64,000 bases of DNA from Schmidtea polychroa (Eukaryota), in NCBI GenBank assembly GCA_044892525.1, contig CM097888.1, forward strand, positions 41,106,001-41,170,000, in the 5' to 3' direction. The notes under the pieces were generated by a model. That model had not been told where the DNA came from, ran no database searches, and saw only the letters and a program-made list of their open reading frames with translations. Positions 3,048 through 57,032 of the stretch are shown here, piece by piece. The translations under genes and the position numbers were made by a program. Numbering within the stretch: position 1 is the stretch's first letter; each line of letters opens with the position of its first letter.

Positions 3048-3196
3048 AAATACAATAGTTTTACAAATGCAATATTAAAGATGAGTGCAGAAGAAGGAGT
3101 GTATGGCTTTTTTCGGGGACTTGTTCCAACAGTTCTAATGATATTTCCTCAAACTGCCATCCAATTCGCTATTTATCATAACCTCAAATCATCTAT
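3048..3196 (+). CDS. SLC25A19: Internal exon of mitochondrial thiamine-pyrophosphate carrier (SLC25 family); 3' end lost in an N-gap
   Basis: TTAG acceptor ends at 3047. The exon reads KYNSFTNAILKMSAEEGVYGFFRGLVPTVLMIFPQTAIQFAIYHNLKSS, the second half of a carrier repeat (EG..GF[F/Y][R/K]GL.P motif). Confidence 0.8.
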
Positions 3197-3337
3197 NNNN
3201 NNNNNNNNNNNNNNNNNNNNNNNNNNNNNNNNNNNNNNNNNNNNNNNNNNNNNNNNNNNNNNNNNNNNNNNNNNNNNNNNNNNNNNNNNNNNNNNNNNNN
3301 NNNNNNNNNNNNNNNNNNNNNNNNNNNNNNNNNNNNN
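3197..3337. other. Assembly gap (N run)
   Basis: 141 Ns. Confidence 1.
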
Positions 3338-5748: not shown

Positions 5749-6610
5749 CTTATACAACACACAATATTAACTTTTAATATTATTAACTTTTAATTCTGAA
5801 GCATTTATGGAGTTGTATGCTTCTACTAAAACTCAATTTTTGAAAGATTCAGAAATTAAATATCCAAGTCCAATTAGTAAGATAGTAAGTTTCAAATAAT
5901 TAAACATCGAAATTAAAATAACCTGACAGATTCTTTATTGTAAAATTTTAAAATATAACATACAAATAAACAAATAATATTAAAACAACCTTTAAATAAA
6001 GTTTATTTAAGGTTTATTTCATTTTATTAATTCATGAAAAACTCCAATTGGTGCAGAACCATCCATATGAGACCACCACATATGGCTTTGGCGATACTTC
6101 TCGATTCCACTGTCCTGAACTTGAGTTAATTGTATTTTAGAATTATTTTGATGAACCTATTTCTTTTTTCTCTAGTTTTATCTTCAAAACTGCGAATTGT
6201 AAATGCAGAACCATTCACTTCAGAGCTATAATTTTTCTGTACATATGACAAAATATTTTTACAATTTTTGGAAATTTCCTTATGAATTAAAAGATTATTA
6301 TGATAGAAAACGCCTTTCTCGAAACTTTATACTTCGTCGATTACGACTGCATTTTTGTTTTAAATAATCAACCTGAAGGATATGTAATTGGGTAAGTCTT
6401 ATATGCTTTGAAATACCGTACTATTCGTATATTGTTGATGTTATTTTTATTCCATTTTTTTTACCTAACGAGCTTGTATAATAATTTTCAAAATGTTTAA
6501 CGAGCTTAAAAGATTTTAAAAAAATTGCTTATTTTATGGTTAACACAAGCAACGTTTTATTCACTTTTTATTTGAACAGTAATAATTTAACGAATTGTTT
6601 TAAATTTTAG

Positions 6611-6954
6611 TCAAATCGAATCAGAATTATCTAATAAATGTCTTTGCTGAACTTTTATCAAATGAATCTGCGAATTCTTTAATTTCCGGATCAGTGGCAG
6701 GTATTGTCGCGAAAACTGCTATTTATCCATTAGACCTTGCAAAAAGACGATTACAGGTTCAGGGTTTTGAAGAGGTTCGTCAACATTTCGGGAAATTTCA
6801 TCATTCATTGCGAATGGTTCATTCTTTTCGTAAAACGGTTTTGGAAGAAGGAATTTTGGGATTGTTTAAAGGCTTGTTGCCTAGTTCTATTAAATCCGGG
6901 GTAGTTTCAAGTCTTACATTTTTCTTTTATGAAAAATTTAGTAAAATAATTTAG
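6611..6954 (+). CDS. SLC25A19: Terminal coding exon of SLC25A19-like carrier
   Basis: TTTTAG acceptor ends at 6610 (alternative CAG at 6624). ANSLISGSVAGIVAKTAIYPLDLAKRRLQVQGFEEVRQHFG...EEGILGLFKGLLPS carries the Px[D/E]xx[K/R]x[R/K] carrier signature and the RLQV.GFE..R..FG motif typical of SLC25A19. TAG at 6952-6954. Confidence 0.85.
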
Positions 6955-7913: not shown

Positions 7914-9516
7914 TCAGACGAGAATGATACAATTTCGGCCTTTATTAATATATATGATTTTAGAAAGAATGTGAGATCCCTCGACAATAGCACATTCTCG
8001 TTTAGATCTCGCCTGCGATCTCCTACAATGTAAACCAAAAGATGATTCATCAATGGAAATGATTTTAGAGAGATAATTATTAAAATGGTTATTGAACCAC
8101 AAGGAATATTCTTTTCAAAGTCTAATCTTGTCAATTGTATTAATTCGATCAAATTCACGGTGGGTACACTTGACGGTTATTTTTTCAATTCTTCAAGACA
8201 TCTGCTAATTGTTGACATCAAAATGGTAAAATTTCCATCGTGTGTCTCTTCAATGTTCACTTTTATTTCTTTTAATGTATAACTCGGATTAAATGAAATG
8301 AAATCTTCGGTTTCATTCATCACAGATAATGTTAGAACATCTCGTTGCCTACCATCTTTGGGCAGCTTGTATATCAAACCGTTTTTGTCGAATCTCCTTG
8401 TAATTGTTCGAGCAGATCCATAATTTATTCGTAAAAGCTCGGCGGCCTCCTTTGTTGTACGGCCTTGCAAATAAACCAGTCTAATTGTTGACATCAAAAT
8501 GGTAAAATTTCCATCGTGTGTCTCTTCAATGTTCACTTTTATTTCTTTTAATGTATAACTCGGATTAAATGAAATGAAATCTTCGGTTTCATTCATCACA
8601 GATAATGTTAGAACATCTCGTTGCCTACCATCTTTGGGCAGCTTGTATATCAAACCGTTTTTGTCGAATCTCCTTGTAATTGTTCGAGCAGATCCATAAT
8701 TTATTCGTAAAAGCTCGGCGGCCTCCTTTGTTGTACGGCCTTGCAAATAAACCAGTCTAATTGTTGACATCAAAATGGTAAAATTTCCATCGTGTGTCTC
8801 TTCAATGTTCACTTTTATTTCTTTTAATGTATAACTCGGATTAAATGAAATGAAATCTTCGGTTTCATTCATCACAGATAATGTTAGAACATCTCGTTGC
8901 CTACCATCTTTGGGCAGCTTGTATATCAAACCGTTTTTGTCGAATCTCCTTGTAATTGTTCGAGCAGATCCATAATTTATTCGTAAAAGCTCGGCGGCCT
9001 CCTTTGTTGTACGGCCTTGCAAATAAACCAGTCTAATTGTTGACATCAAAATGGTAAAATTTCCATCGTGTGTCTCTTCAATGTTCACTTTTATTTCTTT
9101 TAATGTATAACTCGGATTAAATGAAATGAAATCTTCGGTTTCATTCATCACAGATAATGTTAGAACATCTCGTTGCCTACCATCTTTGGGCAGCTTGTAT
9201 ATCAAACCGTTTTTGTCGAATCTCCTTGTAATTGTTCGAGCAGATCCATAATTTATTCGTAAAAGCTCGGCGGCCTCCTTTGTTGTACGGCCTTGCAAAT
9301 AAACCAGTCTAATCAGGGTTTTCTGTTTTCGTTACTAACTGTTTTATAGTCGATGCTATATCTGTTCCTATTGACATTGTGCTTTATGGCATTTCTGCCA
9401 ACTTTCATCATCACATTAACTACATTTGTCCACAATTGCGTTTGCTCATGATCAATTGTAACATTATCGTCTGGATTGTCGAACTAGCAGGCAACTACTT
9501 CATTTTCTTCGTCCAT
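7914..9516 (-). mobile_element. Degenerate Tc1/IS630-type transposase relic
   Basis: Bipartite HTH region (YKTVSNENR..LIRLVYLQGRTTKEAAELLRINYGSARTITRRF), then, across stops and frameshifts, IISIDESSFGLHCRRSQARSKR with the first DDE aspartate motif. TIRs not resolved. Confidence 0.75.
8205..9313. repeat. Four apparently identical 276-bp tandem copies (92 codons each) of the transposase HTH segment
   Basis: CTAAT recurs at 8205, 8481, 8757, 9033 and 9309 (period 276). The reading frame stays open through all copies (ORF 8177-9298). Confidence 0.95.
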
Positions 9517-40729: not shown

Positions 40730-41713
40730 TGTTGAGGTCTCGATATTCGGGAACACTCAACTTACTGGTTCTTATATATGTACAAATATATCAAAAGACA
40801 AAGTGATTTATAAAACTTTTATTATAAAGAAAAATTTACCAATATGAATTTGTTGCTAGATTACAAAAATCCAAAAATCCTTCAAATATCCAACCGAATA
40901 TGCTTGTATGTACTGTGTGAATGTTATGTATTCTCTTGCTGTGTTGCGTGTAGGCTTTTGAACGTTTCTGTTTGTCTGTTCGAGTTTTAGCACTAATAAG
41001 GATTAACCTTTTTAGTATGTTAACGCGGTTAAAATTTTGGGGCCAAAAAAATGAATTTTGACTCGCTATTTATACTTTTTCTTTTAAGAGAAAATGATTA
41101 AAAATTTAATTAATATATTTTAAGTATTCTTAAGTATGCTTAAAAAATGAATTTAATATATTTTAGCAGATGTTTTTCCTTAATACTCTAACAGATATTA
41201 TTTAACCAGATGTTTTTCTTACTCTATTATTTAATAATTACAATTATTTTTCCTTACAACTTGCGTGCATTATTTTAACAAAATTTAGATTTCTAATTAT
41301 TTTATAGTATTATTATTATTTCATTATATTATTTATCTCTACTTATAAAACTAATTATTAATGATTTAATTTACCCTTTTATAAAAATATTAAATGTATA
41401 CGGAAAGATATATTAAATAAAAATTAACAGCTACTCAAAAATATGTACAAACTTCTATAGAATAAAAATAATTAATATATACACCAATAATATCATAAAG
41501 AAATAAAATAAGTAAAATAAAGGATAGTCCAAATGACACAGCATGAATAAAGTAAATAATGAATTTAGTTAACACATAATCGTCAATATTTTGAATTGTC
41601 CGGCTTTGGTTGTCTGGGTTCCACATAGATATTGACTCTGAACTTGTTGCTGCCCGTTCTATAGTAGTGTGTTAGTTCAAACTCTTCAATTCTTCTTCCT
41701 CTGTCATCCAACA
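40730..41713 (-). repeat. 3' LTR (984 bp)
   Basis: Identical to 56049-57032 except GTA (41015-41017) vs TGT (56334-56336). AATAAA on the minus strand at 40818-40823. Confidence 0.97.
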
Positions 41714-42101
41714 CTCCTCCTAGGGTCGATAAAGTAATGTCCTCATTACCTTTATCGCTAAGGACCAATTCGATTTCGCAACCGTTTATATACATTGTTG
41801 CTCTTTGGAATCCTTTCTTCAATGCCAATTTTAACACATCACCATCAATAATTCGTCTGCCGAAGTGTTGATGTATTTCTTTTTCCGAGATAGTGGATCT
41901 TCCCTCTTTGATGATGAACATTGGCTCCTCCAACTCGACATTTGGCTCTGATCCTAGTTCGTCATCTATCTGCATTGCTTCGCTCGGTGAGAAATATTCT
42001 TCATCCGAGTCTAAATCACATTGTGGGTCAGCATAGTTGTAACTACTTGATGTCTGAGGTTCTTCCTTTATTTTGATTGCTTGTGGTACGTCTGCTCCCA
42101 T
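41583..42101 (-). CDS. ORF4, 172-aa acidic protein running through the PPT into U3 of the 3' LTR
   Basis: True ATG at 42101. The frame crosses the LTR boundary at 41713. A diverged homologue at 13.6/15.5 kb supports coding status. Confidence 0.65.
   Translation of the reverse strand: MGADVPQAIKIKEEPQTSSSYNYADPQCDLDSDEEYFSPSEAMQIDDELGSEPNVELEEPMFIIKEGRSTISEKEIHQHFGRRIIDGDVLKLALKKGFQRATMYINGCEIELVLSDKGNEDITLSTLGGVLDDRGRRIEEFELTHYYRTGSNKFRVNIYVEPRQPKPDNSKY
41714..41721 (-). promoter_or_regulatory. Polypurine tract
   Basis: Minus strand AGGAGGAG immediately before TGTTGG of the 3' LTR. Confidence 0.65.
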
Positions 42102-42447
42102 CTTTATTGAATTTCAATTCTCTTTGTGAGGGTTCGATATATATATCTCCCTCAAATTCTTCTGGCTCATCGCTGTTTTCTTCTATTGGACTGAGTTGAT
42201 GGCCATTATTTTCCTTTTGGAATGCTGTCATATCCCACCTTATGACTTCTTCCCATTGCTTTTCGACCAAGAGGTAAATGACTTTTGCGATTAGTGTTGT
42301 ATCTTCTGCTGAGAACGGTTCGGGTTTTTTGAGGATGTTGTTGATTGCTTTCTTCCATTTTGGGTGTGTTGCGATTACCTTGTATGCGAGATTCGATAGT
42401 TTGATTCTGTGTGGTGCTACATTTTTGACGAATGAACACATGAACAC

Positions 42448-45400
42448 TAGGGTGGGTCGAAAATTTTTTTTTCTCCAAACATGCCTAAAAAGTTGTGCTT
42501 ATGCTAGAAAATGAAATATCCCTGCAAAAGACTGCTGTTTAAAAGGGTTTACAGGTCCCAACTTTTGTTTGTATGTATTAGTACTATCCCAGTAAAAATG
42601 CTCGCACACGTGCCATTGTAAATTCATCCTGCAAGCAGTCACACGCTTGCAGAAAGACCATTTTTGACATGCTCTATTCACAAGTCCGAGCTAACGCGTG
42701 CATGTATAGAGAGGTTAATTCACGGAAGCACCTTCACACAAGCACTCACAAAGACAATTTCTTCTGAACAATACTAACACACACACTACAGTCAACACAT
42801 AATCCACATGGATACTACTAGTCAGTCTAAACTCAGATAATTTAATTTGTTTCGATTGGATGTCAAGTGTTTGCTGGACCTAATTAAAAAAGTTAACTTG
42901 ATGATTCACTTTTATTTTGCCAGAGCTGAGTACAGAAGAGCAGTTATGAAGGAACAGAGAAATAAGCAATTTCGCAAAACAAGAAGTAAATCACGTCATT
43001 GTCTGTTTGGTCAAACTTGTGAACTACCCAGAAACCAATTACCTACTTGTGAAGATGTGTTTCGTGATTACTGTTATAATGAGAAATGTACGCAATTTCA
43101 TACTGGCTTTAACGAACAAGCAACTCTTCTCGCAAATAAGGTGAAGGAAATTTATATGAAGGCAAGTATCCCAACTGTTGAGTTCAGTAGTATTGTGGTT
43201 CGTGTCAAGCGACTAATATCAAAAGTGCGTGAATTAGAGAAGTATCCAGAATGCAAGAGGTCATCTGCCAAATTTCAAGATAAGTTAAGCTCGTTTTCCA
43301 AATAGTTTGACATATGTTGCTGCAAATGTTTTAATTATGGTGCTCGAGGAAGATTTCAGTGTACATGCCGATTGGCCTTGAAAATTCCTACCTTAGAGTG
43401 GGAGTTCTGGATTGACCAACAAACTACCAGAAACATGAAAATCGGAAATACGGACAGACAGGAAACCTCAAAATTGAAGAGAAAACAAACGAAAAGCAGC
43501 CCTACAGGAAAAGGAAAACAAATGAAAAATGAAATAATGGACACTGAAGTTAATGATCTACATCCGACCTCAAGAAGTGACACGGAGAGTGAAGCCGCTA
43601 GTGATGAAAGTAAAGATAAGTTAGACAATTCAACAGGAAGTTCAGAGTCAAGCGTAGAAGAATGTGATGAATTTCAAAATAGAAGACATTATCCTGAATT
43701 AAGTAAAGCTGTTGACAGATGTGGTGTGAGCAACAGAGACACGTGTTTGCTAGTAAACGCTTTTCTGAAAGATATGGAACTGTTATCCTCTCAAACAATC
43801 ATTGATCCCGCAAAATTACGGCGTCAGAGAAAGTACTGGAGGGAGAGAGAAATTGAACAGCATTCAGCAGAAGCGAAAAACTTGATTTGCCTCGGTTTCG
43901 ACGGGAAACAAGATTCCACCTTACTTCATAGAAGGATCCTAAAAGAGGAGCATTATGTGATTGTCGCCTTTCCAGGGGATACATATATCGATCATGTTGT
44001 ACCTCAAAGTAGTAAAGCTGTGGATATTGGCAAAGAAATCATGTCAATCATCGTTAGCACGCAGTCCTCACTGACCCTTCAAGCAATTGTGTGCGATGGA
44101 ACCAATACAAACACCGGAAAAAATAATGGAATAATCAGAAGACTCGAAAAAAGCCTAGGGCGACCTCTACAATGGCTGATATGCTTGTTGCATGCAAATG
44201 AATTGCCATTCAGGAAGTATTTTTCAGTCGTCGATGGTGGAGAAACAAAAGGTCCAAAAACGTCATGTGGTGAAATAGGAAGCGTTCTTGATTTTGATCC
44301 AAAAGACAAGCCCGTAGTAGCCTTTATGTCCCTTCCTGGAAAGGTCGTAGATATTAGTGAAAATGTCAAGAAAGAATTGAACACTGATCAATTGTATTTC
44401 CTCAGAGTATGCTTGGCAGTCCAGAAAGGGTACCACAACAACAAGGATGTCCCTTTTCTACAAATGGCACAACCAGGAAATTTGAATCACAGTCGCTGGC
44501 TAACGAAAGCTAATAGAATTCTGCGACTATATATGTCCGAAACTGCTCCATCTGAACCTCTCATGCGAATAGTGAAATTTATTGTCAATTTCTATGGACC
44601 GTCATGGTTTTATATAAAGACTCACTCGTCATGCCAAGATGGTGCAAGAAATATTTTTTATATGCTCCAACTTCTGCAGGATTTGGATCCATCAGACCAA
44701 GAAATCATCTTTCCTGTCATTCAGAACAACAATTACTTCTCACATCCAGAAAATATACTCCTAGCTGCTGTTGGTGATGATGATGAAGAAATCAGAAAGT
44801 TTGCAACAGAAAAAATCATAACTGCAAGACAAAATTTTCTCCCTTCCGAAGTGATTCGCACTATGGACAAGAATACTGTCTTTCTTCAGTCGTCTGCTAC
44901 ATCATATGTTGACATGATTGACTGGACAAAATGTAATTTGACGCCTCCCCCTCTTTTATCTCATATATTGGATCATGAATTGAAGATGAATAAGAAAATT
45001 ACATTAGAACAATTTCCCTGTCATTCTCAAGCCGTTGAAAGAGCCATCAAAGATGTTTCTTCTGCCAGTTGCAAAGTGTTTGGTCACAAGTCCAGACATG
45101 GTATGGTACTACTGTGTAAAAAATCAAGGAAGGAATTGCCCAAGGTGCAAAGCAAAATGATTTCACGTGACTTCTTTTTATGCCCTCGCTAATACATTTC
45201 TAAACTTTTGGCTGGATGTTTTTAATAAAAAATAATTTCGAAAGTTGATTTTTGTCTTTGAAAAGGATAATTCAAATTTGGCCCTTCCTAATCACTGACG
45301 TTGTCAGGATATATTTCAATGCGGGATGAGGACACAGAATATACTATCTCAGCCCAAGAGAGTAAATAATATACTTATAAGCTCTTAAGAAAGCTACATC

Positions 45401-45617
45401 TAAATATGGACAAAGGCGCAAAACACATTCCGACACTAGCCAAATTACATTGTTTTCACACTTATGTTGAACTGCATTTTCGGAGAAAAGTTGGGAGCAG
45501 TAAATGTCCATAAATCTAAGTAAAATGGTTTGATTCGATTTTTCTATACCAAAATACAACTTTTTAACCATGTTTCCTTTCTTGAACTCAAAATTTATTA
45601 ACATTCGACCCACCCTA
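42448..45617 (+). mobile_element. hATm-type DNA transposon (3,170 bp) nested in ORF3
   Basis: 14-bp TIR TAGGGTGGGTCGAA / TTCGACCCACCCTA. Perfect 8-bp TSD ATGAACAC. The subgroup name rests on the TAGGG ends and the FDGK.D motif. Confidence 0.92.
42847..45192 (+). pseudogene. hATm transposase with one in-frame TAG (43303-43305)
   Basis: The two track ORFs share a frame (SK*FDICCCKC). Motifs LGFDGKQD, VCDGTNTNTG, ICLLHANELP and PCHSQAVER. The true start is uncertain (possible short first intron). Confidence 0.85.
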
Positions 45618-46604
45618 ATGAACACATCTTCAGCTAACTCTCTGACTCCCATGACATTGTACAGATCTAATGTCAGCGTATTGAGTTTCTTTATTATTTC
45701 GTATCCCACAATGATTTTTCCGAGTAGCAGCTTCTGTATGTCGATCAGCGCTTGGTATTCGTCTTCATTTCCTCTTATTGAATCCCTGTCTGCTCTTGTC
45801 TTCTCCGGGTAATAATGTTGGATTTTGGTGCGTGGAGTCACCTTTTTATTGTATACGATTTCTCCTCTAAAATTTCTGATGCATATCTCTACTGGTCTGA
45901 GATTGTTATTGATGTCGCATACTTCTTTGACATCGACGAACATGATTGCCCTTTGTCGTTCGGGGATTGACAACTGTTGATGTGTGAATGACATCCGTTT
46001 CGAGATGAAATCCTGATGTATCACGATTTCCGACTGTATCATCTCTAATTCTCTGAAAGGATTGGGTATGGTTGGGACATATAGAATTTCGATAGCCATC
46101 ACACAGGGTAAATTGTTCATTTGGATGACCAAATTGTTGAAATCGTTTGGCACGCTTCGATTTGTCTTCATCGTCTTGATCACCACCGTGCAGTTGCTTG
46201 TTGTTATAATAGGGATTCGTTGTTGGCAAATTGAGACCTCCGTTCTGGTCATATGGAATAGTATTCTATGTGGGACTTTTCTTCCTTCATTTGCTGCGAT
46301 ATCTGCATTTTTGAACATATCATAGGTGCCTATTATATCTCTCAGCTTTATCCTTCGGGCTTCATTAAATTTAACTAAGTGCATTTCTCTTTCTTCGATT
46401 TCGCACTTCATTTCATTGGGTATGCAGACCTGGTTAGGGAAACTTCTGATGGTGATTGGTGAGCCGTCTGAGGTGATTTTATTTTGCAAATTTTTGTAGA
46501 AACTGTGGTATAGTTTTTGAATGGAGCAGCTGTATTGTTGGACTGGACGTTGTATGGGATTGAATGGTTTGGGATTGACTCTGGTATTGTTGGATTGCAT
46601 TTTT

Positions 46605-46625
46605 CTAAAAAAACAATATAAACAT
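46605..46625 (-). promoter_or_regulatory. Candidate 3' splice acceptor for an ORF3 subgenomic mRNA
   Basis: Minus strand TTTATATTGTTTTTTTAG|AAAAATG, with the AG ending 4 nt before the ORF3 ATG. Confidence 0.5.
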
Positions 46626-46741
46626 ATTTACAGCGCATTTGAGGCTTTACCTTATACGCTTCAATATAAATAAAAATATAAATATATGTGAGTTTAAATA
46701 TTATCATTGACCAATAGGAATTGAAATTATCTATATTATCT

Positions 46742-47572
46742 TTAAACCAATGAGGACATTGTGTATTGTCCTGGCCTATACTTATCCAAATGAAAATGCC
46801 CTGGTACATTTTTGACCAGTCGGTGCCGATACCGCTGCCTTTTCCATTTGTATTTTTTATACACTTGAACACTGGTGATAATAGCTAAAATACTCAATGC
46901 TAAAATGCTTGATGAGATTACATAGAAAGGCCATCGTGGTTTAGCAGGTTTTACTTGAAATGCTCTTAGTTCATCCCAGTTATTTATGATTATGGGTTTT
47001 CCCGTAGGTAATTTTACCAGTTTCCTATCAAACTGTCTTAGATTTTTTATTATTAATTTTTTGTATATTTGTCTAGTTACTTTAAATGTCGTTTCTCTAT
47101 CTGTGTTTGTTATCGTTTGTAATGACTGTTGGGTGGATGCCGAATTTGTGGTAGTTATTGTTATGGTGGTTGTTGGCATGCTATTATCTATGGGCTTATA
47201 TATGTTTGTGATAGTGGTTCTTATTCTTTTGCACCTTACTTGTGATGTGTCAACTAAGGTATTCCATTGTGCACAAAGTGTGTAATTAGTGTTAGGCTGT
47301 AGATTTATGAATTCAACATTGTCTCCTCTTTCAAATTCATTAGTTGATCTATTCTCAATTTTTTTCATAAGCTTGGGTATATCGTTCCCAGTTTCTAGAT
47401 ATAAGTCTCTTATGGGTGATTTATTCAAGTTATATACTTTAATCTTATACGGTGAAATGTTGATTAATATATCTTCCTCCATGTATTTTACTGAGTGTAT
47501 GCTCTCATTTTCTACTTCAGTTGATTTACATAGCCCTATAATTGTTAAAAAGATCGCTGCCATCATCAGTGC
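46742..47572 (-). other. Post-integrase type-I membrane protein domain (signal, FN3-like strand pattern, Thr-rich stalk, TM, basic tail)
   Basis: Hydrophobic ALMMAAIFLTIIGLCKS (47522-47572). Four N-X-S/T sequons. VEFINLQPNTNYTLCAQW, then PTTTITITTTNS, then TM FYVISSSILALSILAIITSV (46868-46928) followed by YKKYKWKRQRYRHR. Confidence 0.75.
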
Positions 47573-50500
47573 TTTTTGTGATCGTAATCCATATTTGTGA
47601 GGTGGTTTTTCTATTAACTCTGTTTCTGCTAGTTTGCATCTATTAACATGTACTATTATCGGATCCTCATTTTTATGTTTTTGTAAATGCAGGTTTTCAT
47701 GTACTACTTTTACTACTTCGTATGGTCCTTTAAATGGTCTTGCTAATTTAGTTGTTTTGCCTTTACCTACTTGTGGAGACATAAGTCTAACCTTATCTCC
47801 CACTTTAAAATTATGAGGTTTACTATTTTTATCGTAATCTGCCTTATATTGTTCTTGTCTAAATCTAACTTTTAAGTTTGCAACTTTATATACCTCTTGT
47901 AATCTCTCTTGCATTAATGTTACATAATCTGGCGCATCTAAATATTGTGATACTCGAGGCTCTCTTAAGAACATTAGAAAATATGGTGAATATCCCGTTG
48001 TCTCATTTGGTGTGATATTATGGATGTATGTGCATTGATTAACGTATTCATCCCAATCATTTTGGTTTTTTCCCACAAACACAGCTAATCTACTTAGCAA
48101 TGTCCCATTGAATCTCTCTACTAAACCATCGGTCTGAGGGTGGTATGCTGTTGTGTTGATTTTATGCATGTTAAATATGTTAGCTACTCTTTTTATAGTT
48201 TCACTCATGAAATTTTTCCCTTTATCTGTTAATAATTTTCTCGGTGTACCGATTTTAAAGATTATTTTTTCCACAAGTAATTTAGCTACTGTTTCTGCTG
48301 TTTCATCTTTTGTAGGAAATGCCTCTGCCCATTTTGTAAAATAATCGCTAAAAACTAGTATGTGCTTATTCCCATTAATTGTTGTGGGTAGTTTACACAA
48401 AAAATCCATTGCGCACAGTTCCATTGGTGATGTTGTAGCTGGGATTGGGTGTAAAGGTGCTTTAGTTTTTGTTCCTGTATTTTTTCTAGTTGCGCATATT
48501 GTGCATGCATTACACCATCTCTTGACATCCTTTTTCAAATCGTCCCAATAATATTTTTGCATCAATCTGCTTGCTGTTTTCCTACTTGATAAATGACCTC
48601 CTAAAGCACCATTGTGATATTGTAACAGAAGAATTTGTCTTAATCTTTGTGGTACTACTATTAATTGTTTACCGCTAAAATCCTCAATAACAATTAACTT
48701 CTTACAGATTTTATACTTTTGGTTAGTTCCCTTTTTTATTTCTTCTCTTATCTTGAAGAGTTCTGGATCTTTCATTTGTTCCTCATATATTTCTATTGGT
48801 TTTTCGGTTACTAATGCAAAAACTTCTAGTGCTCCTAACTCTGGAATTCGTGATAATGCATCTGCATTCCTGTTTATTCTACCTGATTTGTATGCAATCT
48901 TTATGTGCATGTCTTGTATTTTTATTGCCCATTTTAACAGTCTACTGGATGTATCTTTATGTTTCCATAACCCTTCTAATGGCTTATGGTCTGTTCTAAT
49001 TACTACTTCAGTTCCATATATGTATGGTTTAAATTGTTTTAATGCAAAAACTATAGCATAACATTCTTTCTCAATTGTTGAGTACCTAATCTGTGCTCCT
49101 TTTAATGTTTTGCTTGCATAAGCTATTACATAATCTTTACCCTTTTCCTCTTCTTGTCCTAAGACTGCCCCTATGGCCTTCCCGCTGGCGTCTGTCATGA
49201 CAATGAACTGTTTTTTAAAGTCTGGGTATCTTAGTATCGGTGCTGTTATTAATTTTTCTTTTAGTTGATCAAAAGCTTTTTGGTGTTCATCTTTCCATTT
49301 CTTTTGTGGCTTGTTAATTTTATCGTTAATCTCTTGTACTATTAACACTCCTTTACTCTCTCCCTTTGTTTTGACTCCTTTTGTTAACTCAATTAGTGGT
49401 GCTGCTATTTTTGCATAATCTTGTATGAATTTGCGATAATATCCTGTGAGACCTAAAAATCCCTGTACTTGTTGTAATGTTTTTGGAACTGGGAATTTTT
49501 TAACTACTTCAATTTTATCGGGATTAGGTATTATACCATCTACTGTAACTATATGTCCTAAGAATAATGCTGAAGGTTCTGCCCATTTACACTTAGTGGG
49601 TTTTATTTTGATTTTTGCTTTTCTTAATCTTTCTAGTACGTTAGCTATATCTTTTAGATGTTCCTCAAATGTTTTTGATGAAATTAATATATCATCCATA
49701 TATACTGCGCAATGTTGTACGTCTACTAATACTGTATTCATTAAACGTTGAAATGTTGCTGGCGCATTAGTTAACCCAAAAGGTAATCTTGTATATTCAT
49801 ATAAACCGTCTTCTATCACAAAAGCTGTCTTTTCCGCATCCCCCTCTTCCATTTGAATTTGCATGTAGCCTTTATTTGCATCTATTACTGTGAAATATTT
49901 AGTATCTCTAAGTTTATCATATTGTTCTTGTGCTTTTGGGAATGGGTATGAGTCTTTTACTGTTACATCATTTAATTTACGATAATCAATGCACATTCGA
50001 ATTTCCCCGTCTTTCTTTCTAACTGGTACGATAGGTGATGCCCATTGTGAAAAACTTTGTTTTATTACGCCTGCCTCTTTTAATTCTTTAATTTGTCGTT
50101 TTATTTCCTCCCTCAGTTTATATGGTACACTATAGGGTCTCTGTTTTATTGGTCTAGCATTCCCTGTATCGATTACATGTTTGATAATGTCAGTATCTCC
50201 TAAATCAAATTCGTGTTTTGCAAAAACATCACTGTATTCGTCAAGTAATATTTGTAGTTGTAGTTGTTGTGTTTCATTTAGATAATTATTATTTATTTTA
50301 ATCTTATCATAAAATTTAATATTATTCGCTCTACTCTGTTCGACCATTCTCTCACTGACATCACTCGTCATCGACATTTCACATACTTCAAATGTTTGCT
50401 CTAATTCACCTTTGAACAACTTTCCCAATTTTGTACCTTTATGAATTTTTACTTTATTTCTTTCGTAATTCGCGATTCTTATTGGAATTGTCCCATTATT

Positions 50501-53500
50501 TGGGATTACACACTCGTCTGTTAACATTACATTATGATTTCGTGATATTGCCGTTTCAGGCTCGAAAATGAAAGTGTCCTCACTTTTAACATTAACTTTT
50601 ACTGGAATTATATGATCACTTTGATACTCTAGTTCAAATGTCTCTAATGCAATTACCTCAGTAAATCTTGCGTCTTGACATATTGCCTTCCGTTTGACTG
50701 TACTATCCGTTAAATCGATTACACAGTTTTTTAACTTTCTGAGTATATCCATGCCAAGGACACATACGCATTTACACTCTGCTACTACCTTGAAGACATG
50801 TTCAACCACTTGATCCGAAAAGTGGACTGTTAATTCGATATCTCCTTTTAATGGTATGTAATGTGATGATAATGAAATTACTCTATCTCTTGTGCTCACG
50901 ATATTTTTCTTTTGGTTTCCGGTTAACTGATCTTCACGAATCATAGAAGCTGCTGCTCCTGTGTCGCATAATGCCTTTATTATCGTATCATTTATCACTA
51001 TTTGTAATTTAGGCCTTGCTTCATTTAACCCTTCTAATATATCGTCAAGTTCTAACCCATAACATCCATAAGTTTCCCTTGGAACACAATGACAATTACC
51101 ATTTTCACCTGGGATTCTAATTTCAATATTATTTCTCAATTCTGTCAATTGTTCTCTTTGATTATCATATAACCCAATATGTGGTTGCTCAGTATTTTCT
51201 GATCTGTTTGTATCGTCCTCTTTCTCATTGGTGATCATTATTTCACCCTCTTCCCTTCGACTTTTCATCCGTTTGATTTCCTTATCGTGCCTCGCAGTGA
51301 TCAAATATTTGGCTATGAATGGACATAAACATGCTATCATTTTATATGAATTACCAAAAACTTGTCTCAGTTGTCTTAACGAAACTAATGATGAGCAAAT
51401 CATTTTCAATAGTGCTACTGTATAATATATACCCAATATAGTGGAAAACGTATTTCCGAGAATCGCAAAATATCCCCATATGCTGTATAATACTCTATAC
51501 ACAACTTTCTTGAAGTGCTCTTTTGATAATAATACATCAAAGTTGTAATTTCCTCCATAACTATTTTCGATGATTTTGTTTACCATGATAGAAAGAACTT
51601 TTTCTTTTTCATGAGGAAATAACATATGTTTTCTGGCGCTCTCTATCGCCTCTCTCGTATACATCCCATTGTTATCCATTTCGTTGACTTCCTGAAATTC
51701 TAACTTTTTCTCAAGTTCAGTTAGTTCTAGTTTTTGTGGTTTAGTCGCTTCTTTTCTATCTGACATTGTAATCCACATATCATCATTTATTTTGTATAAT
51801 GGATCTAATAGATTAGTACATTTATCAATTTTTCTCGGAACATAGTCTTTATCTGTTAATATCCTTGTTATTGGTTGGAGGTATACAGTTTCTCCTTTAT
51901 ACACTACTGGCAATTCGTTTGTGCACTTATTATTCGTTGCTAAAGATACGCTAACCGGTTTACACTGAAATGTTTGTATCACTTCACCGACAACTCTTGC
52001 AAATGTCCCTTTCTCTGCAAATAAAATTGGTGCCATTAAATCTGGGTTTGTGACTGCAACCGCCATCTTTGTTCTTAATATTTCTCTGTTGAGTTTACAA
52101 TCGTTTGCAATAGTTGCTTGATATACTTTGTCCAATTGTACTAACTGATGATGATAGAAATAATCAATTTTATTATTAAAATATGATGCTAGCTTGACGT
52201 CGAATTTATCTATTCTCGATTTTGCCTCTTTAATTTCACTTCCGCTGATATAAATTCCCTCATAATTTGTTTGCACGACTGCCTTGCCACATTTTATGCT
52301 TTCACCTTTTCCTAAAAATCTCATCCCCTCTGTTTCAGAATCTGACATGTATATTGTTGGGGTATCTCTCTCTTGAATTATCGTTGCTCGTCGTTTTTGG
52401 TCTTTGATGCTCTTGGATTCTACATCCGTAAACTGTTTACCTCGTATCGTTCTGAATTTCAGTGTCTTTAATTTAGTTAGATGGCATTCGTATTTATTCA
52501 CTCTGTATATGATCATTGACTCGCCTGTATCACAGCTTGTCTCCTCTAATGTGCAGAACTTATGTGTCATCATTTTCTTTGATGAACTATCAAATGACGC
52601 TTTGAATTTCCTTAATTCAATATAATACTGCCGTCTCACTACAATATTGTCTGCCACATGCCCCCATATTTTATACCTTCCTCCTTCACAATATCCTCCT
52701 GTTGATGACCATCCCACGACATTTACTAATTGTCTTACTCGTGCTCCTACCTGAGCATCTAACTCAAATCCATCCGGCGTTTTTATCTTTTTTGTTTTAA
52801 ATGCATTTTCGCATTCAACTGGCGTTATTATTATTGCTTCTGGTGCCCATGTTGGGGTTAATATTGTTCTTGCCACCTTGTTACACACAAAACTTTCCTC
52901 TGAATATTTGACTATACATTCTCCTGCTTCTGTGTGAATGAAATCAGATTCCTGATATATATGGAAAATCTTGGGGTCTGCTACAATTAATTTTGTTGGA
53001 TTAGCCTCTGGGCAATTTTCTACATCCAGCAATGAATATTTTTGTCCCCACTTGGGATTCTGACAGTCATACGCTATGATCGCATTATTCCCTTTTATCA
53101 GATCTAATAACAATGTTATTACTATAATTACTATTGACATTGTCGACTTTCTTTCTTTTTGACTTGGTTTCATAGTTGTTTTATTTACTAGATTTTTTAC
53201 TGTTTCCTCCGTATCATCTATTTCTACATTAATATTATCTTCTACGCTTTCCTGAGCACTTTCGATTAGACTCTCATCATACAGTATTTTCCATCCTCCC
53301 TTTAATTTTATCCATGGCATAGCATCTATCTTTAATTTATTATATATCATTTTAGCGATATTTTCTATTTGATTCTTTGGATTCAATCGCAAATGTTTCT
53401 TGTATCTTGCTATTAAATATGCCATTGCCGTAATCACTTTATCTCGATTAACTCCTGTTGTAAATAATATCTTTAACACTGTCTCTTCATTTGCTTCCTC

Positions 53501-54280
53501 TGCACTCAATTCTCTAATCTCTTTTTCCATTAATTTAATCTTTTTAACTATATTTTCTATTAACGCTGATGGTTTTGCTTCCGGAAATCGTCTCATATTC
53601 ATTGCTTTAACTAACTCTGTTATCATCTTTATATCTTTGTCATTATCCTGAATTTTTGGGACTTCCTGTCTCATATTATTTGCAATATCTCTTAGACGCT
53701 CTGCTGCCTTTCTGTCATCTGACTTTTCGGCTATTTCCGATTTTCGAGGCCTTCCTCTACCTCGTCTCATCGTCTCTGCGTCCTGCATATTTGCTTGTTT
53801 CGCAATTTTTTCTATTGTCTCATGTAAATTATCATATTTAGTATCAATAGGTTTAAAGATTTCATCGCTAACTGTTGGTGACCTCATTGCTCCTCCTGAA
53901 GAAGCATCCCACAATCTAAATAATTTATCATAGTCATTTTCGTCATTTATACTCAATTCTACTGATGGAGTTGGTGTATCAATTTCTTTACTTTCTTGCC
54001 TTTCTATTACTGCAGAAATAATATTGTTATCAATGACGTTTACTCCATAGTCAATTATATATTCATTATTCATCATTTCTACGCCGTTAAAATACAGTTT
54101 CACTTTATCATTATCTCCCAATTTCTCGGGCCAATTTGCTGTGGCCATCTGTTTCACTTTATTCACTTTTGTGCAAACATGTACCCCTGTACTACGCATA
54201 AGTATTCTCGAAAGGTCCTTTGCCTCAATAGTTATATTCAATGACTCATGTAATTTCTGATTTTTTCTCACAAATTCACC
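46742..54280 (-). CDS. pol: Giant accessory-Env-Pol-membrane polyprotein (2,509 codons from GTG at 54271; the open frame begins at 54280)
   Basis: Uninterrupted frame. PR LCDTGA (DTG 50957-50965). RT YRKLN, PFGLTNAPATFQR and YMDD (49691-49702). RNase H TDASG. IN HHCC, D-D35-E and GPY. Confidence 0.95.
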   Translation of the reverse strand, partial: GEFVRKNQKLHESLNITIEAKDLSRILMRSTGVHVCTKVNKVKQMATANWPEKLGDNDKVKLYFNGVEMMNNEYIIDYGVNVIDNNIISAVIERQESKEIDTPTPSVELSINDENDYDKLFRLWDASSGGAMRSPTVSDEIFKPIDTKYDNLHETIEKIAKQANMQDAETMRRGRGRPRKSEIAEKSDDRKAAERLRDIANNMRQEVPKIQDNDKDIKMITELVKAMNMRRFPEAKPSALIENIVKKIKLMEKEIRELSAEEANEETVLKILFTTGVNRDKVITAMAYLIARYKKHLRLNPKNQIENIAKMIYNKLKIDAMPWIKLKGGWKILYDESLIESAQESVEDNINVEIDDTEETVKNLVNKTTMKPSQKERKSTMSIVIIVITLLLDLIKGNNAIIAYDCQNPKWGQKYSLLDVENCPEANPTKLIVADPKIFHIYQESDFIHTEAGECIVKYSEESFVCNKVARTILTPTWAPEAIIITPVECENAFKTKKIKTPDGFELDAQVGARVRQLVNVVGWSSTGGYCEGGRYKIWGHVADNIVVRRQYYIELRKFKASFDSSSKKMMTHKFCTLEETSCDTGESMIIYRVNKYECHLTKLKTLKFRTIRGKQFTDVESKSIKDQKRRATIIQERDTPTIYMSDSETEGMRFLGKGESIKCGKAVVQTNYEGIYISGSEIKEAKSRIDKFDVKLASYFNNKIDYFYHHQLVQLDKVYQATIANDCKLNREILRTKMAVAVTNPDLMAPILFAEKGTFARVVGEVIQTFQCKPVSVSLATNNKCTNELPVVYKGETVYLQPITRILTDKDYVPRKIDKCTNLLDPLYKINDDMWITMSDRKEATKPQKLELTELEKKLEFQEVNEMDNNGMYTREAIESARKHMLFPHEKEKVLSIMVNKIIENSYGGNYNFDVLLSKEHFKKVVYRVLYSIWGYFAILGNTFSTILGIYYTVALLKMICSSLVSLRQLRQVFGNSYKMIACLCPFIAKYLITARHDKEIKRMKSRREEGEIMITNEKEDDTNRSENTEQPHIGLYDNQREQLTELRNNIEIRIPGENGNCHCVPRETYGCYGLELDDILEGLNEARPKLQIVINDTIIKALCDTGAAASMIREDQLTGNQKKNIVSTRDRVISLSSHYIPLKGDIELTVHFSDQVVEHVFKVVAECKCVCVLGMDILRKLKNCVIDLTDSTVKRKAICQDARFTEVIALETFELEYQSDHIIPVKVNVKSEDTFIFEPETAISRNHNVMLTDECVIPNNGTIPIRIANYERNKVKIHKGTKLGKLFKGELEQTFEVCEMSMTSDVSERMVEQSRANNIKFYDKIKINNNYLNETQQLQLQILLDEYSDVFAKHEFDLGDTDIIKHVIDTGNARPIKQRPYSVPYKLREEIKRQIKELKEAGVIKQSFSQWASPIVPVRKKDGEIRMCIDYRKLNDVTVKDSYPFPKAQEQYDKLRDTKYFTVIDANKGYMQIQMEEGDAEKTAFVIEDGLYEYTRLPFGLTNAPATFQRLMNTVLVDVQHCAVYMDDILISSKTFEEHLKDIANVLERLRKAKIKIKPTKCKWAEPSALFLGHIVTVDGIIPNPDKIEVVKKFPVPKTLQQVQGFLGLTGYYRKFIQDYAKIAAPLIELTKGVKTKGESKGVLIVQEINDKINKPQKKWKDEHQKAFDQLKEKLITAPILRYPDFKKQFIVMTDASGKAIGAVLGQEEEKGKDYVIAYASKTLKGAQIRYSTIEKECYAIVFALKQFKPYIYGTEVVIRTDHKPLEGLWKHKDTSSRLLKWAIKIQDMHIKIAYKSGRINRNADALSRIPELGALEVFALVTEKPIEIYEEQMKDPELFKIREEIKKGTNQKYKICKKLIVIEDFSGKQLIVVPQRLRQILLLQYHNGALGGHLSSRKTASRLMQKYYWDDLKKDVKRWCNACTICATRKNTGTKTKAPLHPIPATTSPMELCAMDFLCKLPTTINGNKHILVFSDYFTKWAEAFPTKDETAETVAKLLVEKIIFKIGTPRKLLTDKGKNFMSETIKRVANIFNMHKINTTAYHPQTDGLVERFNGTLLSRLAVFVGKNQNDWDEYVNQCTYIHNITPNETTGYSPYFLMFLREPRVSQYLDAPDYVTLMQERLQEVYKVANLKVRFRQEQYKADYDKNSKPHNFKVGDKVRLMSPQVGKGKTTKLARPFKGPYEVVKVVHENLHLQKHKNEDPIIVHVNRCKLAETELIEKPPHKYGLRSQKALMMAAIFLTIIGLCKSTEVENESIHSVKYMEEDILINISPYKIKVYNLNKSPIRDLYLETGNDIPKLMKKIENRSTNEFERGDNVEFINLQPNTNYTLCAQWNTLVDTSQVRCKRIRTTITNIYKPIDNSMPTTTITITTTNSASTQQSLQTITNTDRETTFKVTRQIYKKLIIKNLRQFDRKLVKLPTGKPIIINNWDELRAFQVKPAKPRWPFYVISSSILALSILAIITSVQVYKKYKWKRQRYRHRLVKNVPGHFHLDKYRPGQYTMSSLV
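51298..53140 (-). other. env: Envelope glycoprotein domain, chuvirus-G/herpes-gB-like (class III fusion) type, located upstream of the protease
   Basis: Signal MSIVIIVITLLLDLIKGNNA, then IIAYDC...YSLLDVENC. 14 Cys in the ectodomain, including GWSSTGGYCEG and FQCKPVSV...KCTNELPV. Membrane segment VLYSIWGYFAILGNTFSTILGIYYTVALLKMICSSLVSL (51377-51493). Confidence 0.85.
53270..53635 (-). other. Bcl-2-family-like domain (BH1 and BH2)
   Basis: Ungapped 60-aa alignment (53291-53470) of ILFTTGVNRDKVI...QIENIAKMIYNKLKIDAMPWIKLKGGW with Bcl-2 ELFRDGVNWGRIV...[27 protein letters not shown]. Confidence 0.75.
53740..53770 (-). other. AT-hook motif
   Basis: RRGRGRPRKS. Confidence 0.7.
54000..54240 (-). 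other. Ubiquitin-like domain at the polyprotein N-terminus
   Basis: KVKQMATANWPEKLGDNDKVKLYFNGVEMMNNEYIIDYGV resembles ubiquitin [21 protein letters not shown] and the UBL3/MUB NWP motif. No C-terminal GG. Confidence 0.6.
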
Positions 54281-55809
54281 TTAACACTTTATCATTTCTT
54301 TCAATTCTATTTCTAGTTCAAATACTCTTGTCATATTTTGCCTCTTTACCATTAGTGATATCAAATTTCTCAAATATTCTAAGTCAATTCCTTCGACTTG
54401 AACTCTATTTATTATACGCAATGTCTCATTGTCATCATAAGGCCATTTCTCTAATGTCTCTTTCAATTCCTCTTTTAATTCTTTACATCTATTTGCTTCT
54501 GCAAGAAATTTCTCATCCGCTTCTCTTGCTTCGCGAAACTCATCATTATCTATATCTACATCATTAGTAAAACACTGAAACTCATTTAATGACATTTCTA
54601 ACTTTCTCTCAATAAGTCTCCCATATTGAGTTTTAAATTCTTTTAATTCCTCTCTCAAACTGTTTATTTCCTTATTAGCTGATATCAACTCAGCACTATT
54701 AATTTGTTTTATCTCAGGCTCATTTTTAAATCTCACTCTATTAGGCGATTCGCTTCGCGCATTGTTACATACTTTAGCTAAGTGACCATATTTTTGGCAA
54801 TTATAACATTTGATCTGTCCATTAAAATTTACTTTATCTCTACCATCATTATTATAAGGGCTTCCTCGTCTTTCTCTATATGAATTCTGTCTATATGGAC
54901 TTGTCTGTCTACGTCTCAAATCATTTGTATTATCTCTATTATCATATCTATTACTTCTATCATATTTATTATTTCTCAAATTATTTCTATTAAAATCGAC
55001 TCGATTATCTCTCGTATAATTATTTCTATTGTATTCGTATCGATTATCTCTATCAAAAGTGTTTCTATTGTTTCTATTCTCAAAGTTTCTGTTTCTCACA
55101 TTATCAAACCTCCTCCTGTTTTCAGGCGATTGACTTCTATCCGGACTCGGGCTTACCCTTCGTCTATTTTTTACAAAGTTTAAATATAGTTGCTTCATCT
55201 CCTCCCAGGGAATGTTGTCATCTGACTTACCCAACTCAGATTTTACCTCGATGGGTTTTTGAATTTCCATTGCATCTACATGTGAGCTAAATCTATCTCG
55301 TTGTATTGCTTCTATACGTTTAGCTTTATGAACTAATTCATTTAAATTACCATATTCTACCATAATTAATGCTTTATATAAATATTTTTGTATACCATTC
55401 CAAAACTGATCCTCAATTAACTTTGCTGTGTGCTCGCCCGCACCAAATGCCTTTTTCGCTAACTCCGTAATCGTATATACATATTCACCAACTGATTCTC
55501 TAGTACCTTGATATCTGTTTCTAAATTTTTGAACATTTATCTTTTGTAAATCGCTATCGATTACTATTTCTGCTCTCAGATATCTTACGAGTTGATCAAA
55601 ATTATTCCCTTTACATTCTAAGTTATTGTATGCCTGTAACGCATAACCTTTTAAGTATAATGGGATTCTCATTTTTAATTCATCAGGTGTCCAACCACAA
55701 GCTTCTGCATACTGAGCGATCTCAGTGAAAAAATCGTCGAACTTTCAGGCTCTCCTCTATATGGTTCTACTGGTAAAATTTTTATGTAATTATTATTATT
55801 ATTATTCAT
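54281..55809 (-). CDS. gag: Gag (~509 aa) with a 1-nt frameshift near 55743-55745
   Basis: ATG at 55809. PVEPYRGEPE/FDDFFTEIAQYAEACGWTPDELKMRIPLYLKGYAL is the Ty3 capsid start. Other motifs: YRQ-like RYQGTRESVGEY, an R/N-rich linker and zinc knuckle CYNCQKYGHLAKVC. Confidence 0.9.
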
Positions 55810-56028
55810 CCTATAGACTATTCTATTTCTGAGATTATAAACTATTTCGGGTTGATTATCTATTTTATCTTTTTGAATTATTTAATAATTTTCAAAACTG
55901 AATTTATTTATTTAAAAATTGATCAATGATATTATTTTTATAAATATATTTTCCCAATATAAAATACTATACCCTCTGATCTCAATTCCTATCCCCCAAA
56001 TTGTGAATAACAATAATTGATTTTAAAG

Positions 56029-56048: not shown

Positions 56049-57032
56049 TGTTGAGGTCTCGATATTCGGGAACACTCAACTTACTGGTTCTTATATATGT
56101 ACAAATATATCAAAAGACAAAGTGATTTATAAAACTTTTATTATAAAGAAAAATTTACCAATATGAATTTGTTGCTAGATTACAAAAATCCAAAAATCCT
56201 TCAAATATCCAACCGAATATGCTTGTATGTACTGTGTGAATGTTATGTATTCTCTTGCTGTGTTGCGTGTAGGCTTTTGAACGTTTCTGTTTGTCTGTTC
56301 GAGTTTTAGCACTAATAAGGATTAACCTTTTTATGTTGTTAACGCGGTTAAAATTTTGGGGCCAAAAAAATGAATTTTGACTCGCTATTTATACTTTTTC
56401 TTTTAAGAGAAAATGATTAAAAATTTAATTAATATATTTTAAGTATTCTTAAGTATGCTTAAAAAATGAATTTAATATATTTTAGCAGATGTTTTTCCTT
56501 AATACTCTAACAGATATTATTTAACCAGATGTTTTTCTTACTCTATTATTTAATAATTACAATTATTTTTCCTTACAACTTGCGTGCATTATTTTAACAA
56601 AATTTAGATTTCTAATTATTTTATAGTATTATTATTATTTCATTATATTATTTATCTCTACTTATAAAACTAATTATTAATGATTTAATTTACCCTTTTA
56701 TAAAAATATTAAATGTATACGGAAAGATATATTAAATAAAAATTAACAGCTACTCAAAAATATGTACAAACTTCTATAGAATAAAAATAATTAATATATA
56801 CACCAATAATATCATAAAGAAATAAAATAAGTAAAATAAAGGATAGTCCAAATGACACAGCATGAATAAAGTAAATAATGAATTTAGTTAACACATAATC
56901 GTCAATATTTTGAATTGTCCGGCTTTGGTTGTCTGGGTTCCACATAGATATTGACTCTGAACTTGTTGCTGCCCGTTCTATAGTAGTGTGTTAGTTCAAA
57001 CTCTTCAATTCTTCTTCCTCTGTCATCCAACA
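56049..57032 (-). repeat. 5' LTR (984 bp)
   Basis: See 3' LTR. TATA-like TATAAATA on the minus strand at 56386-56393. Confidence 0.97.

Follow-up and report, generated by a model that had tools for sequence, protein, structure and literature searches.

A diverged Bcl-2-like domain ahead of the Env signal sequence in a compact Burro-related element of Schmidtea polychroa

The element and its Bcl-2-like domain

The stretch of DNA analyzed here (the window, 64,000 nucleotides of Schmidtea polychroa; assembly GCA_044892525.1, contig CM097888.1, positions 41,106,001 to 41,170,000) contains, on its minus strand, a long terminal repeat (LTR) retroelement in which a Bcl-2-like domain lies between a Gag-SUMO region and an envelope (Env) glycoprotein. 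The LTRs, of 984 bp each, were located at 56049..57032 (5' LTR, TG...CA, adjoined by a TGG-starting stretch resembling a primer-binding site) and 40730..41713 (3' LTR), with a 4-bp target duplication outside both. They differ at 3 of 986 positions, and the element is young. Bounded by these LTRs, it measures 16.3 kb with a 3.2-kb insertion and about 13 kb without it. The original prediction had proposed a retrotransposon-encoded Bcl-2-like protein whose tail anchor may double as the Env signal peptide; its motifs were all found where claimed, in one minus-strand frame of 2512 codons (46742-54280).

Within this frame the Bcl-2-like domain, with predicted helices 1-8, covers 53282..53650 (aa 211-333), as supported by Pfam PF00452, a structural model, fold searches and the ratio of non-synonymous to synonymous substitution rates (dN/dS). 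Its motifs are, in reading order, DIKMITELVKAM (53600-53635), LIENIVKKIKLMEKEI (53516-53563), the BH1 segment LFTTGVNRDK (53438-53467), IENIA (53354-53368) and the BH2 motif WIKLKGGW (53291..53314). A gap-free alignment to Bcl-xL and an alignment of seven element families both place NRDK (53438..53449) at the position of the BH1 signature NWGR. The GGW of BH2 is invariant in all seven families (A to F and a giant family), which are those sampled here and not a census, further subfamilies being present in the genome.

Sequence comparisons identified the domain at several levels of sensitivity. A 181-aa piece matched the Pfam Bcl-2 model (PF00452) at E 1.2e-5, with a score (26.2 bits) that does not reach the curated cut-off of 31.4; in the genome search, 32-33 bits were scored by a few sister copies. 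A profile of four subfamilies aligned to Bcl-xL 124-189 over 66 gap-free columns (E 2e-4), which bears out the gap-free match proposed originally, and the profile of all seven families reached E 2.4e-6 against Bcl-xL. The single window sequence, searched against PDB sequences, found Bcl-xL at E 1.2 or worse, behind chance matches to ribosomal S8. When the profile comprised solely Bcl-2 sequences of the host and of Mavericks, the domain scored 26.7 bits, a value reached by none of 1000 shuffled sequences (best shuffle 13.2; reversed sequence 0.6). When protein collections were searched, the domain had no relatives among longer proteins (0 of 1413 candidates), and a query with Bcl-2 plus Env found none among long proteins (0 of 4334 candidates). 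The sole match among 50%-clusters was of low complexity, to helices 1-3, and was disregarded.

The AlphaFold model of the domain (pLDDT 78.5, pTM 0.74, from a 10-sequence alignment) contains eight helices, at residues 12-28, 40-51, 53-61, 66-74, 80-98, 102-117, 121-127 and 131-134, and predicts an eight-helix bundle around a hydrophobic helix 5; helices occupy the BH4 and BH3 positions, as had been proposed. All 41 matches listed by Foldseek were Bcl-xL or Bcl-2 (probability 1.0, TM 0.47-0.61, best E 1.9e-3). VIA-align gave a best Z of 12.7 (rmsd 3.4, 129 aligned), a level near the 13 that the program itself flags as possibly common among helical bundles, and its top 35 listed matches were cellular or viral Bcl-2-family chains, the poxviral ones being recognized by name. 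The best non-Bcl-2 chain scored only 5.2. We assign the Bcl-2 fold because of this gap to unrelated chains and the agreement with the sequence profiles, and on these sequence and model comparisons the domain is a real, diverged, Bcl-2-like domain, more than a chance resemblance. Its identity and its layout in the element appear to us close to certain.

The domain is embedded in a long series of retroelement parts, all on the minus strand. Gag, with one CCHC knuckle (54281..55810), precedes a SUMO/ubiquitin-like domain with a matched core at 54005..54124 (PF11976, weak at E 0.01-0.04; its counterpart in family E matched PF00240 at E 4e-4) and an AT-hook-like motif, RRGRGRPRK (53741..53767, Pfam E 0.5 only). 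Between the Bcl-2-like domain and a hydrophobic stretch with a predicted signal-peptidase site (53081..53146, hydropathy peak 53096-53140) lies a charged linker (53141..53281), the least conserved part, 52% identical to subfamily B and 26-28% to C. The gB-type, mononegavirus-like fusion glycoprotein follows (51182..53080; PF24664, E 7e-90), with a membrane anchor near 51383-51439 by hydropathy, and Pol stands in frame behind it (47633..51022; aspartyl protease, PR; reverse transcriptase, RT; RNase H, RH; integrase, IN; Pfam E 1e-6 to 1e-37). Behind the integrase, still in the same frame, a second predicted surface protein (46742..47569) comprises a signal stretch (47513-47569), an FN3-like part (Pfam fn3, E 0.11 only), a Thr-rich stalk, the last membrane helix (46868-46924) and a basic tail; this arrangement is repeated in family E. 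No Pfam matches to MATH, BIR, RING or ankyrin were obtained in the window element.

A second reading frame (41583..46884, minus strand) carries an ISG20-like exonuclease-like part (ISG20L2 and ISG20 matches at E 2e-4 and 4e-4) with a poor predicted fold (pLDDT 52.5) and acidic motifs that look partly changed. This frame, also seen at L037:3668-5833, is 700-780 aa long in sister copies. In subfamily A it and the first frame overlap, and in subfamily B the two are fused; in the window copy it is broken near 46620 and by the insertion. The latter is a DNA-transposon-like sequence of 3.2 kb on the plus strand (42448..45617), delimited by alignment to the sister locus L037 and flanked by an 8-bp duplication, with long plus-strand frames and no Pfam match. 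Four contig sets, of a kind that cannot reveal transcription or splicing, cover the element. Two contig sets join the SUMO-like domain to the FN3-like part (window 47353-54068), probably from another deleted derivative. Elsewhere in the window, exons of a mitochondrial-carrier-like host gene were recognized by eye at 3048-3368 and 6604-6954, and a piece resembling a transposase helix-turn-helix is repeated four times in tandem, at 276 bp per copy, within one open frame at 8177-9331.

Copies, families and selection

A genome search with the element returned 152 matches (1353 candidates, 150 scored) in identity groups near 90-100%, 70% and 44%, and 11 of the 150 listed matches held stop-free frames of 3,051-3,090 codons. 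In sister copies the order Gag, SUMO-like, Bcl-2, Env, PR, RT, RH, IN, as read from Pfam matches, runs in a single frame. The window copy itself is no longer intact. A stop interrupts it at 54281-54283, the frame is broken near 55745, and the second frame is also damaged. At the position of the stop in the window copy, 12 of 19 sister loci are open, seven break nearer the domain and none has a stop, and two stop-free sister copies read through from Gag. Because the stop before the SUMO-like domain is peculiar to the window copy, the product would be Gag-SUMO-Bcl-2, and the anchored Ubl-AT-hook-Bcl-2 protein that signal-peptidase cleavage was originally thought to release would, as judged from these frames, be the tail of a Gag precursor. 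The signal-peptidase-like site does fit the anchoring part of that proposal. The AT-hook belongs to the product of the window copy, and among the seven families the motif occurs in just three (A, B and, as a GRP word, the giant family), being absent from C, D, E and F.

Searches with Env-family and BIR models gave three further families, E (L087/L088), F (L089) and the giant (L098-L100), in each of which a homologous domain precedes Env. The Env regions of the seven families are about 30-38% identical at the extremes, and the residues of the domain that are invariant across them are few (R, L, Y and GGW); the first Trp of BH2 is kept in six of the seven. The domain is conserved in sister copies and families; the ENIA word on which the original prediction had also drawn is not kept in sister subfamilies.

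The proposed dN/dS comparison across copies pointed to purifying selection. In all six comparisons with copies of B, the nearest subfamily, the domain had a dN/dS of 0.10-0.12 at a dS of 1.1-1.4, and the flanking linkers gave 0.20-0.27 and 0.29-0.33. Against C, synonymous sites were saturated, with a ratio of 0.14 where it was defined. From these sequence comparisons we conclude that the domain is under purifying selection.

A 7.3-kb non-autonomous derivative of subfamily B was also observed (L024:359-7694, L025 and L033, at C2:128.25 Mb, C3:26.92 Mb and C2:177.07 Mb). A deletion at an 8-base microhomology has removed its signal stretch, Env, Pol and FN3-like part, so that Gag-SUMO-Bcl-2 is joined, with the frame kept, to the last membrane helix and then to the second frame (1673 codons open in L024). 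We considered this derivative as a selected, tail-anchored Bcl-2 and rejected it, its three copies having synonymous to non-synonymous counts (11:28, 6:27 and 4:17) as expected without selection.

The hydrophobic stretch and related elements

The hydrophobic stretch behind the domain aligns with the Env family model PF24664 from position 4 of the model onward, and for that reason it is most simply read as the signal of Env itself and not as the old tail of a Bcl-2 protein. In all seven families GGW is followed by 20-50 residues, the hydrophobic stretch and then [AV]YDC. The stretch is internal, and would be C-terminal to the Bcl-2 protein only after the predicted cleavage. Signal-peptidase sites follow a −3,−1 rule, by which we read the site: by eye, residue −1 is small in all seven families and residue −3 in six, the window copy being the exception. 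The tail anchor proposed originally to double as an Env signal may serve both roles, with the Env signal as the simpler description, and the distance given for it, about 45 residues, is really 48-50. Tails of cellular and Maverick Bcl-2 proteins begin 14-25 residues after the BH2 motif, a spacing that family E (20 residues) resembles and the window copy does not.

Four membrane helices were assigned by hydropathy in the window protein, and the same four in family E; a further peak, one of five (aa 1162-1180), falls inside the protease and was not counted. Gag has no hydrophobic peak of its own. A model for the proposed anchoring is given by hepatitis C virus (HCV), in which core is anchored by the E1 signal peptide and stays in the endoplasmic reticulum (ER) after signal-peptidase cleavage (PMC5402940). 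In both cases a capsid-side protein would end in an envelope signal peptide, although the proteins and the virus are unrelated and the analogy is one of mechanism only. Because the stretch lies 20-50 residues behind the domain in all seven families, membrane anchoring of the Bcl-2-like domain through the Env signal seems likely, on sequence and by this analogy.

Giant gypsy-like LTR elements of planarians, Burro or GYPSM1, were described by Arkhipova and Yushenova (2019; PMC6431247), citing Jurka (2007) and Grohme et al. (2018). In the Burro polyprotein, a mononegavirus-like Env is reported to lie in frame behind a BCL2-like motif, which Grohme et al. (2018) had noted, and a SUMO-like domain (PF11976) to precede that motif (PMC6431247). 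The presence of Bcl-2 in planarian Burro elements is thus already published and not itself new, and the novelty implied in the original prediction, which knew of no Bcl-2 in an LTR retrotransposon, is not supported. The window element shares with Burro a single polyprotein with Gag, a Ubi2/SUMO-like domain, a BCL2-like motif, a mononegavirus-type Env and PR-RT-RH-IN. It differs in size (about 13 kb and a frame close to 3,050 codons, versus more than 30 kb and 4,873 codons), in having one CCHC knuckle and no Pfam match to MATH, BIR, RING or ankyrin, and in its second predicted surface protein and exonuclease-like frame, neither of which is listed in PMC6431247. Giant Burro elements have a dUTPase-like region between PR and RT; at that place the window element has a 120-residue spacer, in which Pfam found no dUTPase match; the Burro paper used HHpred.

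The giant family of our genome (L098-L100) was called Burro1-type by its fit to the published domain list, not by comparison with a Burro sequence. It encodes CCHC, MATH, Env, Pol and ankyrin in a main frame of about 4,670 codons (summed from coordinates), followed by TRAF-like and 392-aa BIR-RING frames. Identity between the window protein and that of the giant locus L099 is 30% across Bcl-2 and Env together and 40% in Pol, and the giant's Bcl-2-like domain is homologous to that of the window (E 1.3e-6). A search of the genome with the BIR model gave at least 150 matches (150 of 150 scored candidates over the cut-off), and the DNA-transposon-like element inserted in the window copy was also seen within a Burro1-type copy elsewhere (L095:7305-9632).

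Six GAG-ENV-POL elements of Schmidtea mediterranea were catalogued by Chary and Hayashi (2026; PMC13524379). One, Smed_errantivirus_3, is an HSV/gB-type errantivirus with the same gene order and a listed span of 14.5 kb, and its Env ectodomain is about 83% identical to that of the window (a count by eye gave about 42 differing residues out of 246), although it belongs to another subfamily than the window copy. By eye, Smed_errantivirus_2 and _1 match families E and F. Of gB-type ectodomains, that catalogue says only that a signal peptide or a second membrane helix flanks them, and Bcl-2 is not named in the accessible text or seven supplements (PMC13524379). The window element has the traits of the gB-type group, with a gB-type Env between Gag and a Ty3/gypsy Pol, LTRs and multiple near-identical copies, and on sequence it is a compact Burro-related errantivirus, not a giant Burro by size or cargo.

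Other Bcl-2 genes of the genome provide a second comparison. For two exons of host Bcl-2 genes, identity to UniRef entries of Schmidtea mediterranea is 99% and 90%, which identifies the host as a Schmidtea planarian; a mixed profile, A2, matched three of 595 candidates, two of them owing to host rows in the alignment, and served only to name the host. The best host match of the seven-family profile is a 'Bcl2-like protein' (UniRef C9WPR4, P0003; genomic locus L056), at 32.8 and 30.8 bits versus 20.7 for the next host gene, and with an HH probability of 82% versus 9% for bcl2-2. This gene likewise lacks the NWGR Gly, and differs from the element domain in standing alone, with its own tail anchor and the BH1 Trp retained. 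A first tree did not place the element domain beside it, and a second, which left out exon-2 of a spliced Maverick gene and the host loci L045 and L056 (P0002 and P0003 being used instead), did so with a support of only 60. As a possible donor of the element domain, the host 'Bcl2-like protein' is at this stage only a lead from sequence.

Host locus L056 is also sister to the Maverick Bcl-2 genes (tree support 90). Two Maverick/Polinton families (L060-L065, L073, L074 and L067-L072; L075-L082) carry Bcl-2-like genes with tails of their own; one of them has an apparent short intron. By eye, the neighbors of these genes are TBP-like, ATPase, integrase and capsid-like frames. Adintovirus Bcl2 homologs were reported by Starrett et al. 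(2021; PMC8502044). These, together with the Bcl-2 proteins of pox-, herpes- and asfarviruses, resemble the window domain in that a Bcl-2 fold is borne by a mobile element or virus, but each of them is encoded by a gene of its own, with its own tail, on a DNA element, and the window domain forms one section of a polyprotein. Host bcl2-2 is present in seven near-identical copies in tandem at C4:89.9-90.8 Mb (L045-L051), which may reflect amplification or assembly duplication.

Possible roles of the domain

The BH1 signature is degenerate throughout. At the NWGR position the seven families carry NRDK, NRDK, NGDR, SENR, DRDV, DKEV and DQNR, with Trp and Gly replaced in every one, and the domain thus has no canonical multi-motif Bcl-2 BH1 signature by sequence, though the BH2 W-x5-GGW is present. 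The NWGR Gly and Arg are important to BH3 binding, and altered viral motifs such as SPGR bind more weakly (PMC9027176); the Bcl-2 G145A mutant loses binding of BH3 proteins (PMC6901440). Because the Gly and Trp are lost in all seven families, textbook BH3 binding is doubtful.

Fold match, purifying selection, a fixed position ahead of the signal in seven families and a single frame in sister copies are the results computed here. We propose, with a probability of roughly 45%, that the locus holds a Burro-related Gag-Env-Pol element with an ER-tethered, non-canonical Bcl-2 domain of putative pro-survival or signal-damping function. The internal Env signal would direct the Gag-SUMO-Bcl-2/Env polyprotein to the ER, with Gag-SUMO-Bcl-2 and Pol in the cytosol and Env and the FN3-like part in the lumen. 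Signal-peptidase cleavage would leave the Env signal as the C-terminal anchor of the cytosolic Gag-SUMO-Bcl-2 precursor, retained after cleavage as for HCV core and E1, and the protease of the element may then free the Bcl-2 domain from Gag. Tethered in this way, the domain would probably aid survival of the cell, or its tolerance of the element, through a non-canonical binding surface. By sequence and model the domain most likely works like viral Bcl-2 cargo, and if it is anchored, we favor a non-canonical host-protective role by a little over even odds. The context favors a host-directed role, given the TRAF-like, MATH and BIR-RING cargo of the giant relative and the Maverick Bcl-2-like genes. 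A more specific version, in which a self-threading polyprotein yields an ER-anchored Gag-Ubl-Bcl-2 whose groove is, in every lineage, closed by an acidic residue and which is rewired to a target in ER stress, autophagy or innate signaling, is a more tentative proposal. Among the passages found, no paper treats the function of the domain (Grohme et al., 2018 and Lee et al., 2026 may do so), and the idea of an anchor that is also a signal was not met in the passages seen on these elements.

Several observations weigh against this proposal. Binding in the groove is possible: five of the seven families retain the basic residue of NWGR, and the Gly is missing from the nearest host gene as well (RWSR). 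Against D, the most distant of the close families, the domain dN/dS is 0.45, near the 0.55 of the linker, and selection alone does not separate a host-directed role from a structural one. Identification of the fold has its own soft points: the Pfam score is under the curated cut-off, Foldseek returned no match to the domain model at E <= 0.001, and the best VIA-align Z is close to the level called common for helical bundles. As for anchoring, the hydrophobic stretch of the giant family is below the hydropathy threshold, above which only two helices stand there; the hydrophobic core is only about 15-17 residues long and might be cut further and released; and a Met at the start of the stretch in four of seven families means that Env could start separately, unlinked to Bcl-2.

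The domain might instead be a canonical viral-type Bcl-2, freed by the protease, keeping the signal as its tail anchor and sequestering Bak/Bax-like or BH3-only proteins in its groove. The entire eight-helix fold, with its closest matches among pro-survival proteins, would suit this, as would the lysine or arginine at the NWGR arginine position in five families, the 20-residue spacing of family E, which resembles that of a true tail anchor, and the residual BH3 peptide binding, weaker though it is, of SPGR-type viral homologs (PMC9027176). We nevertheless hold it unlikely: in each of the seven families the NWGR Gly has been replaced by Asp, Glu or Asn, two have lost the Arg, the predicted groove helices 3 and 4 have just about nine residues each, and co-translational insertion into the ER alone would not bring the domain to mitochondria. 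Somewhat less likely still is a purely structural part, in which the helical bundle is a matrix-like spacer, with no host target, tying Gag to the membrane beside Env at ER budding. All seven families keep the bundle in the same place between Gag and the membrane, the few invariant residues are mostly suited to keeping the fold, Gag has no hydrophobic peak of its own, and HCV core is likewise anchored by the E1 signal peptide (PMC5402940); yet GAG-ENV-POL elements of nematodes and bryozoans are described, in the passages available, without mention of Bcl-2 (PMC13524379), and mobile elements of the same genome repeatedly bear cell-death cargo, which points to a host-directed benefit.

That the domain is a relic of a gene captured long ago, or else a helical bundle of unrelated origin, and is kept only for lying in an essential frame, is very improbable. 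Such a reading could draw on the sub-threshold Pfam score, the lack of relatives in large protein collections and the elevated dN/dS against family D, but the shuffled sequences all fall short of the domain score, sequence and fold searches concur, the dN/dS of the domain is below that of both linkers against subfamily B, and the domain is kept in every family examined. Sequence and model together largely refute a chance likeness. The non-canonical, ER-tethered domain proposed above thus remains our preferred reading.

All seven families have kept the Bcl-2-like domain, even compact ones that lack BIR matches. If the Env signal anchors the domain, and if the cell is protected or re-tuned by it, the domain would be the more ancient host-manipulating cargo of the group and a retroelement counterpart of viral Bcl-2. 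The Burro1 IAP is reported to protect planarian stem cells (as summarized in PMC13465017), and if the rewired version is true, the domain would become the first Bcl-2 of a retroelement whose function is shown and would provide, beside that IAP, a second pro-survival arm in stem cells.

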